Origin: a bacterium
GTDB lineage: Bacteria; UBA8248
Assembly: GCA_965203325.1 (NCBI GenBank)
Contig: OZ241875.1
Coordinates: 2,592,001 to 2,656,000, forward strand
Reading direction: 5' to 3'
Length of the DNA: 64,000 bases
Positions 18,238 through 37,648 of this stretch are shown in pieces. The translations under genes were made by a program, and so were the position numbers. Positions within the stretch are counted from its first letter, which is position 1, and every line of letters starts with the position of its first letter. The notes below the pieces were generated by a model. It had not been told where the DNA came from, did no database searches, and saw only the letters and a list, made by a program, of their open reading frames with translations.

Positions 18238-18335
18238 GGATCAAGGTTCCATGGCACTCCGTACACAATGAAGTACAATTCCTCCACACATCGAACCCAG
18301 CCAATAGAGACTTGATATTTCGGGAGGAAATGAAG

Positions 18336-18554
18336 ATGCCTCAGAAAGCGGATTATCTTGTAAGCGGGGGAACCGTTATCAAGGTGGACGAAGAGCGCCG
18401 TATTATTCGGGACGGGGCGGTCGCCATTCGAGGGGACCGAATCGCAGCCGTCGGGAAGGCGGAGGAGTTGAACCGGGAATTCACCGCTGGCCGCATGATT
18501 GACGCCAAGGGGAAACTCATCATGCCCGGTTTCGTGAATTCCCACATGCATTTT
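18336..18554 (+). pseudogene. N-terminal fragment of a metal-dependent amidohydrolase (deaminase-like)
   Basis: RBS GGAGGA; IIRDGAVAIRGDRIAAVG..IDAKGKLIMPGFVNSHMH, then amidohydrolase character stops right after the HxH motif. Confidence 0.8.
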
Positions 18555-18819
18555 CATCGATTCGAATGCGAACGGTGCAGAAGAACACGAAGCCGAAGCG
18601 AACCGGTGGGCTGCGGATTTCCTGATTCCGAGCGAGGATTGGGAGCGGTTCGTCGACATCGGTCCGAAAAGTGTCACTATTGTTCGGCGATTCGCGGAGG
18701 AACTAGGCATCGCTCCGGGCATCGTGGTCGGCAGGCTGCAGCATGAAGGCCGCCTGCCCTGGGGGCATCCTCTGAACAGGTTGAAGAGGCGCCTTAAATG
18801 GGCCAATGCTGATAGTTGA
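18550..18819 (+). pseudogene. C-terminal fragment of a HigA-like/ImmA-IrrE metallopeptidase-domain protein
   Basis: Hand translation in another frame: IFIDSNANGAEEHEAEANRWAADFLIP...FAEELGIAPGIVVGRLQHEGRLPW..LNRLKRRLKW*; no start codon of its own. Confidence 0.75.
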
Positions 18820-18866
18820 CCGAAGGTGGCGATAGGCGCGCACGGGATACAGGGTCACGGGAAGGT

Positions 18867-20253
18867 GAGTTACGCTCAAAACTTGTGTATGGGCTGAATT
18901 GAAGAAGGCGGCGCATCCTGCTGAAATAGGGTTTGCCAAATAGCCCGGTCATTCAGCACAAGGAGATGCGCCACCATGAGAGAAGATACGACGATTCCCA
19001 TGAAGAATCCAGCCCTACGGGACGAGTTGAGCGAACTGTTGCGCGCGGGCGCGCGACGAATCATCCGCCAGGCGGTGGAAGCGGAGTTGGCGGCGTTTCT
19101 CGAAGAATATGCGGGCGATCGTGACGCGCAGGGCCGCCGCGCGGTGGTTCGCAACGGGTATCTGCCGTCGCGGGAGGTGTTGACGGGAGTGGGTCCGGTG
19201 CGTGTCCAGGTGCCCCGGACGCGGGACAGGTCGGGGTCGGGGCGGCGTTTCCGCTCGGAGTTGCTGCCGCCGTATCTGCGCAAGACGCGGCGCGTGGAAG
19301 CGGTGATACCGTGGCTGTACCTGAAGGGGGTATCGACGAACGACTTCGGCGAGGCGCTCACGGCGCTGTTCGGCGAGTCGGTGGGGGGCTTGTCCCCGGC
19401 GAGCGTCTCGCGGCTCAAGGAGGGCTGGGAGCGCGAGTACGCGCAGTGGCGCGAGCGGGCGTGGCACGGGGAGGAGTTCGCGTATCTGTGGGCGGACGGC
19501 ATCTACGTGAACGTTCGCAGCGGGGAGCGGCGCTGCCTTCTGGTGGTCGTGGGCTGCGACGCGCGAGGCCGCAAGCGCTTCCTGGCCCTGGAGGCGGGGT
19601 TCCGTGAATCGAAGGAGAGCTGGAAGGCGGTTTTGTTGCGCCTGCGGGAGCGGGGCGTGAAGGCGGCGAAGCTCGCCGTGGGCGACGGGGGGCTGGGGTT
19701 GTGGTCGGCGCTGGCCGAGGTGTACCCCGGGACCCGGGCGCAGCGCTGCTGGGTGCACAAGACGGCGAACGTTCTCGACAAGCTGCCCAAGAGCGCTCAG
19801 GTCGAAGCGAGGCCGATGCTGTATGAGATGTGGAGGGCGGAGACCCGCGCGCATGCGGAGAAGGCGTTCGAACGCTTTCTCGCCACCTGGGAGGCGAAGT
19901 ATCCCAAGGCCGCCGCGTGCCTGTCGAGGGACCGCGAGGAGTTGTTCGCCTTCTACGACTTCCCGGCGGCGCACTGGCGGAGCATTCGGACGACGAACCC
20001 GATCGAGTCGACCTTCGCCACGATCCGGCTGCGAACGGCGAAGACGAGGAACTGCCTGAGCGAGAAGACGGCGCTGAGCCTGATTCACCAACTCGCCATG
20101 AGCGCCGAGAAGCGATGGGGGCGGCTGGGCGGCTTGCGCCAGCTGGCCGACGTGATCACCGACGTGAGGTTCATCGATGGGATGAACGAAAAACAAACCG
20201 GCAGGGAGGCCGCTGAACTCAAGACGGCCATACACAACATTTGACAGTAACTC
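18867..20253 (+). mobile_element. Complete IS256-family insertion sequence
   Basis: Imperfect TIRs GAGTTACGCTCAAAACTTGTGTATGG / CCATACACAACATTTGACAGTAACTC; 9-bp direct repeat CGGGAAGGT at 18858-18866 and 20254-20262. Confidence 0.95.
18976..20244 (+). CDS. IS256-family DDE transposase
   Basis: RNGY, VPRTRD, YLWADG, VGDGGLG, QRCWVHK, RTTNPIES motifs. Confidence 0.96.
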   Translation: MREDTTIPMKNPALRDELSELLRAGARRIIRQAVEAELAAFLEEYAGDRDAQGRRAVVRNGYLPSREVLTGVGPVRVQVPRTRDRSGSGRRFRSELLPPYLRKTRRVEAVIPWLYLKGVSTNDFGEALTALFGESVGGLSPASVSRLKEGWEREYAQWRERAWHGEEFAYLWADGIYVNVRSGERRCLLVVVGCDARGRKRFLALEAGFRESKESWKAVLLRLRERGVKAAKLAVGDGGLGLWSALAEVYPGTRAQRCWVHKTANVLDKLPKSAQVEARPMLYEMWRAETRAHAEKAFERFLATWEAKYPKAAACLSRDREELFAFYDFPAAHWRSIRTTNPIESTFATIRLRTAKTRNCLSEKTALSLIHQLAMSAEKRWGRLGGLRQLADVITDVRFIDGMNEKQTGREAAELKTAIHNI

Positions 20254-20363
20254 CGGGAAGGTCTGCGCTCCCCACCCCATTGCCGCGGTGCGGACGGCGG
20301 TGCTATTTTCAGCGGACCGGAATCACTCGTTTTCAGAAGCAGCTTTCCAGGAGGATCACCCGC

Positions 20364-20723
20364 ATGAAAGTCCTCATCAAGAGTCCCTGGGGGTCGGACG
20401 AGTCCACCAAGGCGTCGTTCGCCTTTTTGCACGCGAACGCGTTTGCCGAAGCCGGCCACGAGGTGCGGCTGTTCCTGCTCGGCGAGGCGGCGAACCTGAT
20501 GAAGGACGAGGTGATGAGCGCGATTACGCCCGTCGGCTGGCCGCCTCTCAGGGAGACGTTCGCGCAGACGATGGCGCACGCGATTCCCGTCAACATATGA
20601 ACGGCGTGCGCGCGGGCCCGTGCGGTCACCGAAGCCGATCTCGAAGGCAAGAGCGCGCGTTTCGTGACGCCTCCGGACCTTGTGGCCCTCGTCGAATGGG
20701 CCGACAAGGTCCTGAGCGAGTAG
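20364..20723 (+). CDS. DsrE/DsrF-like protein, probable selenoprotein (UxxC)
   Basis: MKVLIKSPWGSDESTKASFAF..GHEVRLFLLGEA..IPVNI-TGA(20598-20600)-TACARARAVTEADLEGK..LVEWADKVLSE*; the frame continues 40 codons with a DsrE-type C-terminus; RBS AGGAGG. Confidence 0.85.
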
Positions 20724-20767
20724 ATCGATTCCGTAATGCCTCCCAAGCCGGGAATGAGCTGCAAAGT

Positions 20768-20936
20768 CGTCATTCCGGCGCGAAACCATATTCGCCACTC
20801 GGAAAAAGTCGGGTCGCATATATGTCGGACATATATGTCCGACCTACACCAAAACCATGCGCGATGATTGTAGGGCCCGCATATATGCGGCCCATCTGTC
20901 TTGCCCGCCTCGGTCGGAATTAACACCGGAATGACG
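20768..20936. repeat. REP cluster: CGTCATTCCGG/CCGGAATGACG pair enclosing GTAG-type palindromes
   Basis: GTCGGACATATATGTCCGACCTAC (20824-20847) and GTAGGGCCCGCATATATGCGGCCC (20870-20893) inside an inverted CGTC pair. Confidence 0.75.
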
Positions 20937-21074: not shown

Positions 21075-22562
21075 ATGGAGGCGCGCATGGACACGGGGGC
21101 GGAGCCGCTCGCTCAGGCGGAGGGCGGGAGGCCTTTCGCGGGATACGATCTGGATTCGCGTTTTTATGACGAGATGTTCGACGCGGAGGGCGCTCCGCAC
21201 GATGCGTGCGGACGGCTGAAAGACGCGCTCTCGGAACTCACGCCCGAGGACCTGGAAAAACTCCAGGAGGGCGTCTACCGCCGTTTTCTCTACGAGGGCA
21301 TCACCTTCACGGTGCTCGACGCGGAGGAAGCCACCGAGCGAATCATCCCCATCGACTGCGTGCCCCGGCTGCTGACGGCGGCGGAGTGGGACCACATCGA
21401 ACGCGGCCTCAAGCAGCGCCTCGCCGCGCTCAACCTCTTCCTGAAAGACGTCTACGGCGAGGGCCGCTGCCTGCGCGAGGGGCTCGTGCCCGTCGACCTC
21501 GTACTCGGCTGTCCGCAATACCGCATGGAGATGCGCGGCCTCAAAGTCCCCCACGACGTCTACGTCGCCGTGTGCGGGACCGACATCGTCCGCACCCACG
21601 AGGGGTTCGCCGTCCTGGAGGACAACCTGCGCGTCCCCTCGGGCGTCTCCTACATGCTCGCCTGCCGGAACGCCATCAAGGACGTGCTGCCCGGGCTCTA
21701 CCGCGAGCACCGGGTGCGCGAGGTGGCCGACTACGCCGAGCATCTCCACTCGGCGCTCGTCTCCCTGGGCCACTCGCCGCGAGAGCCGAACGTGGCGGTG
21801 CTCACGCCCGGCATCTTCAACTCCGCCTACTACGAACACGCCTTCCTCGCCGGCGAGATGGGCGTCGACCTCGTGGAGGGGCAGGACCTGATCGTCCGCG
21901 ACGCCGCCCTCTACGCGCGAACGACGGCGGGGCTTCGGCGGATCGACGTGCTCTACCGCCGCGTGGACGATGATTTTCTCGATCCCCTCACGTTCCGGAG
22001 CGACTCGGCCCTGGGCGCGGCGGGGCTTTTCCACGCCTACCGCGCGGGGAACCTCGTGCTCGCCAACGCGCCCGGTACCGGCGTGGCCGACGACAAGAGC
22101 ATCTACGCCTACGTGCCGAAGATCATCCGCTATTTCCTGGGCGAGGAGCCGATACTCGCCAACGTCGAGACGCACCTGTGCCGCGAGCCCGAAGGGCTGG
22201 CCTACACGCTGGAGCACCTGGGCGAACTCGTGGTGAAGGAAGTGGGCGGCTCGGGCGGCTACGGGATGCTGGTCGGCCCCCACGCCACGTCGGCCGAGCG
22301 CGCGGAATTCGCCGGGCGGCTGCGCGCGGACCCGGCGAACTTCATCGCCCAGCCCACGCTCGCGCTCTCGCGCTCGCCGTGCTTCGTCGAGGGGGGCATC
22401 GAGCCGCGCCACGTGGACCTGCGCCCCTTCGTGCTCCAGGGGCGCGAGGAGCAGCACGTGGTTCCGGGCGGGCTGTGCCGCGTCGCGCTCCGGCGCGGCA
22501 GCCTCGTGGTGAACTCGAGCCAGGGCGGAGGCTGCAAGGACATCTGGGTGCTGGAGTCGTAG
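21075..22562 (+). CDS. Circularly permuted type 2 ATP-grasp protein
   Basis: VLEDNLRVPSGVSY, YRRVDDDFLDP, NAPGTGVADDK, GSGGYG, RHVDLRPF, VVNSSQGGGCKD. Confidence 0.95.
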   Translation: MEARMDTGAEPLAQAEGGRPFAGYDLDSRFYDEMFDAEGAPHDACGRLKDALSELTPEDLEKLQEGVYRRFLYEGITFTVLDAEEATERIIPIDCVPRLLTAAEWDHIERGLKQRLAALNLFLKDVYGEGRCLREGLVPVDLVLGCPQYRMEMRGLKVPHDVYVAVCGTDIVRTHEGFAVLEDNLRVPSGVSYMLACRNAIKDVLPGLYREHRVREVADYAEHLHSALVSLGHSPREPNVAVLTPGIFNSAYYEHAFLAGEMGVDLVEGQDLIVRDAALYARTTAGLRRIDVLYRRVDDDFLDPLTFRSDSALGAAGLFHAYRAGNLVLANAPGTGVADDKSIYAYVPKIIRYFLGEEPILANVETHLCREPEGLAYTLEHLGELVVKEVGGSGGYGMLVGPHATSAERAEFAGRLRADPANFIAQPTLALSRSPCFVEGGIEPRHVDLRPFVLQGREEQHVVPGGLCRVALRRGSLVVNSSQGGGCKDIWVLES

Positions 22563-22582
22563 CGTTCGATACCGATCGGAGC

Positions 22583-22781
22583 GTAGGGGAGGACCCGTGT
22601 GTTCTCCCGCTGAGTGTTGTTTTGATTGTCAACCCAGGTGTAGGGGCCGCATACATGCGGCCCATGTAGTGGGTTAAAAAAATCAGGGTCGCATATATGC
22701 GACCCCTACAGTCCAACGGCTCGGTTGACCCGGAATGACGGCCAAAACGGGAAACGGGAGGACACACGAGTTCTCCCCTAC
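22583..22781. repeat. Nested REP doublets (one REPIN inside another)
   Basis: Outer inverted pair 22583-22608 / 22756-22781 (GTAGGGGAGGAC...); inner inverted pair 22640-22663 / 22686-22709 (GTAGGGGCCGCAT...). Confidence 0.8.
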
Positions 22782-22813
22782 GGGCATCATCGGGTCGTAC
22801 AGGAGAGAGAATC

Positions 22814-23788
22814 ATGCTGGCTCGGGTCGCCGCCGATTTCTACTGGATGGGCCGCTACGTCGAGCGCGTCGAGCAGACGGCGCGTCTTCTCGAATACCAG
22901 CTCAACCGGCTCGTCGATCGCTCCGTCGATGAGCTGGCCGTCGGGTGGGCGGCGATATACCGGGCGCTGGGCCAGCCCCCGCCCGGAGCGGTTTCGGGCG
23001 CTGAAGAAGCGGAGGCGTATGTCATTCCCGACGCCTACACGCTCGCGGGCAACCTCGTGGAGGAGGGCGCGCACCCCGACTCCATCCTCTCGTGCTGGCG
23101 CCAGGCGCGCGAGAACGGCCAGCGCGTGCGGGCGCAGCTTCCGCTCGCGATATGGACGCGGCTCAACCAGGGCTACCTCTGGATGCGGGAGGTGAATTTC
23201 GCCAGGGAGTGGGAGCAGGCCCCGGCGCGGCTCGCGCTCGACATCATCGACCGCATGCGGCTTTTCGCGGGCGTCGTGCACTCGACGATGCCGCGCGACG
23301 ACGCCTGGCGCTTTCTCGAACTGGGCCGCTTCATCGAGCGGGCGCAGCACCAGGCCGCGCTCCTCGAGGCATGGGTCGAGTTCACGCGCGCAAGGGAGGG
23401 CGTCGCCGCGCTCTCGTGGGCGGATCTGCTTCACGTGTGCCGCGCGTACGAAACCTACTGCCGCCGCCATTCGATGAAGATTCAAAGAGAGAACGTGCTC
23501 GGTTTCCTCGCCCGCGACCCCGAGCTTCCCCGCTCGCTTCGCTTCTCCGTGCAGCGGATCGAGGAGGCGCTCGCCGGCATCGACCCGCTCGGCGCGCGCT
23601 ATCCGCTCGCGCCGCCGCACCGGATGGCGCTTCGCCTCACGGCGGCCATCGAGATGGATGCGGCGGGTTCGGCGGAGGTGGATCCGGGCGCGTTCTGCCG
23701 CGCGGTAGGGAGCGACACCCGCGCGCTCCACGACCTCGTGATGGCGTCCTACGTCAACCGCTCCCTGGCCGAGGAGGTTTCGGCGTGA
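22814..23788 (+). CDS. Alpha-E domain protein (DUF403-like)
   Basis: MLARVAADFYWMGRYVERVEQTAR, ARENG, LGRFIERA, PRSLRF. Confidence 0.92.
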   Translation: MLARVAADFYWMGRYVERVEQTARLLEYQLNRLVDRSVDELAVGWAAIYRALGQPPPGAVSGAEEAEAYVIPDAYTLAGNLVEEGAHPDSILSCWRQARENGQRVRAQLPLAIWTRLNQGYLWMREVNFAREWEQAPARLALDIIDRMRLFAGVVHSTMPRDDAWRFLELGRFIERAQHQAALLEAWVEFTRAREGVAALSWADLLHVCRAYETYCRRHSMKIQRENVLGFLARDPELPRSLRFSVQRIEEALAGIDPLGARYPLAPPHRMALRLTAAIEMDAAGSAEVDPGAFCRAVGSDTRALHDLVMASYVNRSLAEEVSA

Positions 23789-24648
23789 TAGTGAGCTACA
23801 CGGTCGAGCACGCCATGCGCTTCGATTACGCAGAGCCCGTGCAGGCTTCGGTGATGACGCTCTACCTGTGCCCGCTCCGCGACCGCGCCCAGACCCTGTG
23901 CGAGTTTTCGCTGCGCACCGACCCCGAGGGGCGGCTCTTCGAGTTCACCGACCCGTTCGGCAACACCGCGCACTTTCTGGACCGTCCCCGCTCGCACCCG
24001 CGCTTCGAAGTCAAGGCGCGCTCGCGCGTGGAAGTGGGTCCCCTGGTCTCCGCTCCCGAGCGGCTCGATCCCGGCGCGCCCGAAGCGCTTTCGAGCGCCG
24101 TCCGCACGCCCGAGCTCTGGCCGCTGGCGCACCCGAGCCGCTTCGTTCGCCCGAGTCCGGCGCTGGATGCGTTCGTGACGAAACACGGCATCGCTCCGGG
24201 GGACGACCCTCTCGTGAGCGTGCGCGCGCTTTGCGCGAAACTCCATGACGTCTTCGAGTACATTCCGGGCCATACCCGGGCGGATTCGCCCATCGAGGAC
24301 ATCCTGGAGACCGGGCGGGGGGTCTGCCAGGACTACGCGCACGTGATGGCCGCCATCGTGCGCGGCTGGGGGGTTCCGTGCCGCTACGTGTCGGGCTATC
24401 TGGGGCCCGAAACCGCGGGCGCGGCCACGGGCGAGAGCCACGCATGGGTGGAGTGCTGGTTTCCCGGCGTGGGGTGGACGGGCTTCGACCCGACGAACAA
24501 CACCGAGGGCGACGAGCGCCACGTCCGCGTGGCGGTGGGCCGCGACTACGCCGACGTGCCCCCGAGCCGGGGCGTTTTCCGGGGAAACGGCGGCTCGGAG
24601 CTCACCACCGAGGTGAAGATAGAGCGGCACCCGGGCGATCGGGGCTGA
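23785..24648 (+). CDS. Transglutaminase-like protein
   Basis: GVCQDYAH, RYVSGY, SHAWVE, FDPTN, GRDYADVPP; GTG start overlapping the alpha-E stop (GTGA). Confidence 0.93.
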   Translation: MIVSYTVEHAMRFDYAEPVQASVMTLYLCPLRDRAQTLCEFSLRTDPEGRLFEFTDPFGNTAHFLDRPRSHPRFEVKARSRVEVGPLVSAPERLDPGAPEALSSAVRTPELWPLAHPSRFVRPSPALDAFVTKHGIAPGDDPLVSVRALCAKLHDVFEYIPGHTRADSPIEDILETGRGVCQDYAHVMAAIVRGWGVPCRYVSGYLGPETAGAATGESHAWVECWFPGVGWTGFDPTNNTEGDERHVRVAVGRDYADVPPSRGVFRGNGGSELTTEVKIERHPGDRG

Positions 24649-37375: not shown

Positions 37376-37648
37376 CTAGCTATCGCTCTGGTTGCGAGAA
37401 GCCTTGTAACGCTGGTTCATGCTCTGGGCGACCCCCGCCATGACGGCGGCGGTGAGGTCGAATGCGGCGTCGAGCGTCTCCTCGGAGAGGCCCGCTTTCC
37501 CGGCGTCCGCCAGGCGGCGGTCCACTCACGGCTGGCAGTTGCGCACGATGGCGACGGCGAGGCCCATCAGGATTTTCTCGCGGTCGGTGAGCAGGTCCAC
37601 TTTATGGGCGTCGCGGTAGAACTGGCGAAAATCGGCGCGCTCCGTCAT
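37376..37648 (-). CDS. CMD/AhpD-like protein, probable selenoprotein (CxxU)
   Basis: Hand translation MTERADFRQFYRDAHKVDLLTDREKILMGLAVAIVRNCQP-TGA(37528-37526)-VDRRLADAGKAGLSEETLDAAFDLTAAVMAG..*; RBS AGGAG; hairpin 11 nt after UGA. Absent from the ORF track. Confidence 0.85.

Follow-up and report, generated by a model that had tools for sequence, protein, structure and literature searches.

A stand-alone DsrE/YchN-fold gene with an in-frame UGA predicted to encode selenocysteine, in a bacterial genome rich in candidate selenoproteins

The window, that is, the whole 64,000-nucleotide stretch of bacterial DNA analyzed here, contains a gene of the DsrE/YchN fold that is interrupted by an in-frame TGA (Table 1). 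The ATG (20364), the TGA (20598-20600, codon 79) and the terminal TAG (20721-20723) all belong to one frame, and the read-through product is a protein of 119 amino acids with the motif I-U-T-A-C. The match to the Pfam DsrE domain (PF02635) covers residues 12-117 and thus spans the TGA, with an E-value of 1.8e-12 and 47.9 bits against a cut-off of 22.7, and the window gene is the only one with a PF02635 match in the genome (4.39 Mb, a single contig, 95.5% complete, 3.25% contamination). A promoter/terminator scanner reported no sites at this gene, the promoter-like element in Table 1 being under its threshold; a GGTG(C/T)TAT(T/C)TT box is present upstream of the gene in 10 of 12 close relatives. 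In an independently assembled contig that covers 20254-20839 and may come from the source sample, no difference at the TGA is found among the differences listed. Contigs from RNA libraries of relatives, ∼92-93% identical and obtained in two runs (X1 and X2), span the TGA as well; such contigs cannot show transcription.

Table 1. Features at the DsrE-like locus (positions in the window)
Feature	Position	Strand	Details	Basis
IS256/Mutator-type insertion sequence	18867..20253	+	9-bp target duplication 18858-18866, 20254-20262	
Promoter-like element, TTGCCG-18 nt-TATTTT	20280..20309	+	TG ahead of -10	read by eye
Shine-Dalgarno AGGAGG	20349..20354	+	9 nt 5' of ATG; like motif in 12 closest relatives	sequence
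DsrE/YchN-fold gene	20364..20723	+	119 aa, U79-T-A-C82, no signal peptide	Pfam, structural model, Foldseek
In-frame UGA, codon 79, predicted selenocysteine	20598..20600	+	in register with Cys 1 of the YchN CxxC and with the conserved TusD and DsrE3A Cys	
SECIS-like upper hairpin, GGCC-CGUGC-GGUC	20615..20627	+	loop begins 18 nt after UGA	

The IS256/Mutator element ends 26 nt before the promoter-like -35 and is not a part of the DsrE-like gene; the promoter-like box and the Shine-Dalgarno sequence lie 3' of it and are intact in the window, and one close relative (L029) has an empty insertion site. Six further copies of the element in the genome are 100% identical, which marks it as recently active. 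The short open reading frame at 18312-18746 (+) is an N-terminal fragment of an amidohydrolase, with Pfam matches up to residue 87 only, and is probably a gene remnant. Downstream, at 21075-24648 (+), lies a trio of genes for a circularly permuted ATP-grasp protein, an Alpha-E protein and a transglutaminase, an operon that adjoins the DsrE-like gene only in the closest relatives (L024, L025 and L029). Clustering of the 442 neighbor ORFs of 141 loci yielded 280 clusters, with no neighbor gene shared beyond small lineages, and for lack of a shared partner across the loci, gene neighborhood was dropped as a clue to function.

The UGA codon is conserved far beyond the window. Among the best 120 of 810 matching proteins, 86 end exactly at residue 78, and the remainder have Cys (29), Trp (3), Phe (1) or Arg (1) in the next column. 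A scan of species genomes yielded 62 loci, one of which stops short of this column and another is a fragment; in the 61 loci that cover it, the window counted among them, the codon is TGA in 57, TGC or TGT in four and TGG in none. In 56 of the 57 TGA loci, the tail after the TGA is exactly 40 codons long, the exception being the frameshifted L080. By their record titles, the loci come from Nitrospinota, Alphaproteobacteria, Rokubacteria/Methylomirabilota, Binatota and Acidobacteriota, the closest named ones being from Nitrospinota (89-93%). One locus titled as the archaeon Nitrosotalea (L061, genome G032) carries both the DsrE-like gene, whose SECIS is of the bacterial type, and a complete bacterial selA; this record is probably mislabelled or mis-binned. 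Starting from Cys homologues, a scan of metagenomes, with 80 of 580 loci kept, added 71 Cys and nine TGA loci, so that TGG is absent from this column in all 141 DNA loci. Within the genus, the gene was found in 13 of 22 genomes (60 relatives sampled), with TGA in every match that covers the codon. Plasmids yielded two matches, both distant (33-35%). Because nearly all homologues either end at this position or have Cys there, the TGA is not a chance event. A sequence-only reading of this DNA had claimed a 119-residue DsrE-like protein read through UGA, and the frame, the Pfam match across the TGA and the conservation among homologues all agree with that claim. The same reading had named Cys, as opposed to a non-Cys residue such as Trp, as the deciding observation in this column: the homologues that lack the TGA nearly all have Cys, and the four genome loci without TGA all have TGC or TGT.

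The same reading had further pointed to a GC-rich stem-loop downstream of the UGA, GGGCC-CGUGC-GGUC. The hairpin is present, but the conserved stem consists of 4 bp only (GGCC/GGUC, 20615-20618 with 20624-20627), and the extra G of GGGCC opposes an A in this copy. In the consensus fold, positions +15 to +18 pair with +24 to +27 around a 5-nt loop, which closes to GUG/GGG if +23 is a G; the four pairs are kept in 55, 56, 54 and 56 of 56 sequences. A longer stem of 10 bp was ruled out, the upper four pairs alone holding. The geometry fits the bacterial SECIS model (loop of 3-9 nt placed 16-37 nt past the UGA, stem of 4-16 bp, G in the first two loop positions; PMC13188914), with the loop CGUGC located 18 nt past the UGA on a stem of 4 bp, the model minimum. 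How strongly this segment is conserved can be seen in codons 84-88, which have the five lowest third-base entropies among 55 four-fold codons (0.00-0.56 bits, with at least 0.74 for the rest; 53 in-register sequences, three dropped). Among TGA loci, the exact 13-nt motif occurs in 52 of the 56 from genomes and in all nine from metagenomes, as opposed to three of the 71 metagenome Cys loci, although at the peptide level most of the Cys loci have RARGV or a close variant of it.

Thermodynamics is less telling. The folding energy is no better than that of shuffled sequences (z from +0.02 to +0.94), so that folding fails to single out the hairpin and the support for it comes from conservation. Covariation is thin, with a single both-sides change in the upper stem; of 500 shuffles, 10 reach its covariation score and 32 its percentage of paired bases. 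The probability of the hairpin fold exceeds 0.5 in 38 of 56 TGA loci; in the free 45-nt fold of the window's own copy, the conserved hairpin has a pair probability of 0.02, a competing helix wins, and forcing the hairpin costs 2.3 kcal/mol (-15.1 vs -17.4). On its own, the segment from +11 to +32 folds into the conserved hairpin at -6.8 kcal/mol (the threshold for a stable SECIS is MFE ≤ -7.5). The stem-loop of the sequence-only reading agrees with a SECIS in geometry and in frozen sequence, but is not the lowest-energy fold of the window copy. The competing helix uses nucleotides +6 to +14, and during decoding, the first ∼11 nt 3' of the UGA would lie inside the mRNA channel of the ribosome. 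A ribosome positioned on the UGA could thus melt the competing helix and free the GUG-loop hairpin, to which SelB would bind just downstream, so that the UGA would be read as selenocysteine.

A quick tree of the DsrE subfamily (119 columns, midpoint root; L078, the frameshifted L080 and L081, and L083-L085 left out) implies six changes between Sec and Cys, at least four of which are forced by the starred branches. Given the midpoint root and the quick tree, neither direction nor donor is claimed for these changes. The three Cys loci that carry the 13-nt motif in full (L145, L156 and L163, all with TGT) are nested among Sec forms in this tree, and are likely recent reversions from Sec to Cys that have kept a fossil SECIS.

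The AlphaFold2 model of the protein (built with 35 sequences, pLDDT 94.6) shows a strand that ends in U79 and is followed by a helix; in the UxxC motif, C82 is invariant across the 35 aligned sequences. The top Foldseek matches are YchN (1jx7, E-value 3.6e-8), SSO1125 (3mc3), DsrE (2hy5_A), a Syntrophomonas DsrE, BT1422, DsrF and TusD, whereas the sequence search of the PDB gave weak matches only. In sequence alignments, U79 shares its column with the first Cys of the YchN CxxC; in TusD and 3mc3, this column is occupied by their conserved Cys. Escherichia coli YchN is the best structural match (TM 0.72), with its CxxC aligned to U79 and C82, but it has Cys in place of Sec and is only 20% identical; a literature search found no functional paper on YchN. 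DsrE3A (SSO1125, 3MC3; Metallosphaera Mcup_0681), DsrE (2hy5) and TusD (2d1p) share the fold and have their sulfur-carrying Cys at the position of U79; on this Cys, DsrE carries a persulfide and DsrE3A, a homotrimer, binds a thiosulfonate (PMC11094781, PMC4175335). These proteins differ from the window protein in having Cys-X7-Cys or a single Cys rather than UxxC, and their genes are located in hdr, dsr or tus clusters, whereas the window gene stands alone. DsrE3A in particular is characterized by Cys-X7-Cys and a link to hdr and lipoamide genes, in place of which the window gene has UxxC and no conserved neighbors.

Many relatives of the window protein, which itself is leaderless, start with a twin-arginine-like leader (recognized by pattern only): most of the metagenome clade and four of the genome TGA loci. 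Such leaders occur in Sec forms (L062, L063, L068, L073, L105, L116, L121, L149-L152, L159 and L165), which are candidate exported small selenoproteins by this pattern.

The IS located 110 nt upstream, the weakness of the hairpin in the window copy and the Trp found in three of the best 120 database proteins would each fit a nonsense pseudogene or an alternative code in which UGA stands for Trp. The Trp entries probably reflect a gene caller's reading of TGA as W. None of the 141 DNA loci has TGG at this column, and loci from many phyla share the TGA, followed by an intact tail of 40 codons. In this genome, TGA is the commonest stop codon, ending 726 of 1689 long gene-like ORFs, and Trp is encoded by TGG (used 9535 times), which implies that the code is not reassigned; tRNA-Trp(CCA) and tRNA-Sec(UCA) are separate genes. 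The tRNA-Sec scores 75.9 bits, and selA, selB and selD are all over their cut-offs, selD with an in-frame TGA of its own, so that the lack of tRNA-Sec or SelB, which the sequence-only reading had linked to a pseudogene, is not observed. Beyond the host, 50 carrier genomes drawn from the 62 loci were tested, and 40 of them have a selA over cut-off; among the other 10, tRNA-Sec is found at >66 bits in six and at a marginal ∼51 bits in two, which leaves two of the 50 in which neither selA nor tRNA-Sec was found. A pseudogene or a Trp codon is thus extremely improbable, and decoding of the UGA as selenocysteine, judged from the sequence, appears nearly certain. The gene is, on the same evidence, intact, conserved and not cut short, and it belongs to a selenoprotein family that is already catalogued.

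With respect to function, a place in a canonical sulfur relay, be it DsrEFH of sulfur oxidation or TusBCD of tRNA thiolation, would fit the alignment of U79 with the TusD Cys and the single tusA-family gene found elsewhere in the genome. This option is largely refuted and very unlikely: the TusD/DsrE2-type NCBIfam models score 15.9 and 15.3 bits against cut-offs of 92 and 89.25, no NCBIfam model matches the protein at cut-off, there is no second PF02635 gene, the partners dsrF/dsrH (tusC/tusB) were not found, dsrA does not reach its cut-off in this 95%-complete, single-contig genome, and the DsrE-like gene was found in only 13 of the 22 same-genus genomes. These failures, together with the absence of conserved neighbors, lead to the reading of a stand-alone UxxC redox protein: it is highly likely that this is a stand-alone DsrE/YchN-fold gene with Sec at codon 79, whose product is predicted to be cytoplasmic and likely attacks S-S bonds. 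The same recoding could serve mainly for the reduction of peroxide or oxidants in general, in a peroxiredoxin-like manner, as suggested by the JGI label ‘predicted peroxiredoxin' on many homologues, the resolving Cys in the UxxC motif, the numerous AhpD-, OsmC- and Trx-like selenoprotein candidates in the genome and the twin-arginine-like leaders of many relatives, which fit an exported redox role. However, the JGI name is automatic, the fold is that of DsrE and not Trx, and the characterized DsrE proteins transfer sulfur (PMC11094781, PMC4175335), which makes this option, the main rival, rather unlikely. There is about an even chance that the stand-alone UxxC protein is a handler or reductase of reactive sulfur. 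In such a role, U79, at the sulfur-carrying position, would attack a persulfide, polysulfide, thiosulfonate or disulfide, the resulting Se-S bond would be resolved by C82, and the protein would be re-reduced by thioredoxin- or glutaredoxin-type proteins of the cell. By analogy with YchN and DsrE3A, the protein is probably a homo-oligomer.

Selenocysteine-containing DsrE-like forms had been taken by the sequence-only reading as already reported, and rightly so: a ‘DsrE-like protein, PF02635, UxxC' appears in tabulations of selenoproteins since 2005 (PMC1088965, PMC9312934, PMC13188914), in the last of which the family is represented by WP_014524487.1 and its function is called largely uncharacterized. 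The listed proteins resemble the one in the window in the Pfam domain, the UxxC motif, the in-frame UGA and the bacterial SECIS-like hairpin; the window subfamily, marked by WGSD...PVGWP, was matched to them by the family description and not by the sequence of WP_014524487.1. In the sister branch of this subfamily, twin-arginine-like leaders accompany Cys forms as well as Sec forms; neither ‘twin-arginine' nor ‘signal peptide' occurs in the available text of the 2026 review (PMC13188914). SaoD is described in Haft's preprint as a relative of DsrE that is never a selenoprotein.

The suggestion of a selenoprotein-rich organism, made in the sequence-only reading from two candidates, is upheld at the genome scale. 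From script scans for TGA read-through, which were incomplete, 60 candidates were picked by eye, and 50 of these match a family across the TGA (37 of 40 and 13 of 20); the 10 rejected ones either match no family (seven) or are two adjacent genes (three). Together with selD and the window gene, this amounts to at least 52 candidate selenoprotein genes, with conservation checked for the DsrE and CoA-transferase genes only. The AhpD/CMD-like and UGSC groups are expanded. The candidates include 13 AhpD/CMD-like, eight UGSC, five OsmC-like, five Trx/AhpC-like, four PrdB/GrdB-like, four DsbA-like, three deiodinase-like and two rhodanese proteins, and single representatives of SelW/Rdx, glutaredoxin, ArsC, GrdA, DUF3179 and CoA-transferase. 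The published highs for a bacterial genome are 57 and 63 selenoproteins, the latter possibly from a co-assembly (PMC13188914). A narrow literature search on selenoproteomes of sponge symbionts and UBA8248 found no paper. In the window itself, a 90-aa AhpD/CMD-like gene at 37376-37648 (-) has C-Q-P-U (CxxU), its TGA being 37526-37528, and a hairpin in which 6 bp close a GGAC loop; it is probably the other selenocysteine candidate of the sequence-only reading. Elsewhere in the genome, at G000:C1:1154213 (+), a candidate frame with gene-like codon use and no Pfam match (L217) has C-TGA in the context AALNC*SQATF.

The CoA-transferase subunit (PF01144; L224, G000:C1:3929747-3930442 (-), outside the window) has an in-frame TGA in the context EHA-U-ASV. 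Of 18 genomes from the same genus, 16 share this TGA (83-97% identity), and the codon is aligned with Cys in three of the four homologues without TGA; 3' of it, all 15 loci that were folded form a conserved, strong hairpin whose loop is GGC. No CoA-transferase is found among the three ‘CoA' passages of the 2026 review (PMC13188914), and none was found by literature search. This is possibly an uncatalogued selenoprotein family.

Taken together, these observations would describe a distinct DsrE subfamily, covered by no model, in which Sec and Cys have replaced each other repeatedly, with fossil SECIS hairpins and Tat-exported selenoproteins, in a lineage with a near-record complement of at least 52 selenoproteins and an uncatalogued selenocysteine CoA-transferase, a joint reading whose chance of holding in full is put at somewhat below even. 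The genome-wide richness and the CoA-transferase are of more interest than the DsrE-like gene itself. For the DsrE-like family, the annotation is corrected, given that 86 of the best 120 homologues in the database end at residue 78 and lack the active site, and the function of the family can readily be tested on matched natural Sec/Cys pairs, which occur both with the hairpin and without it.
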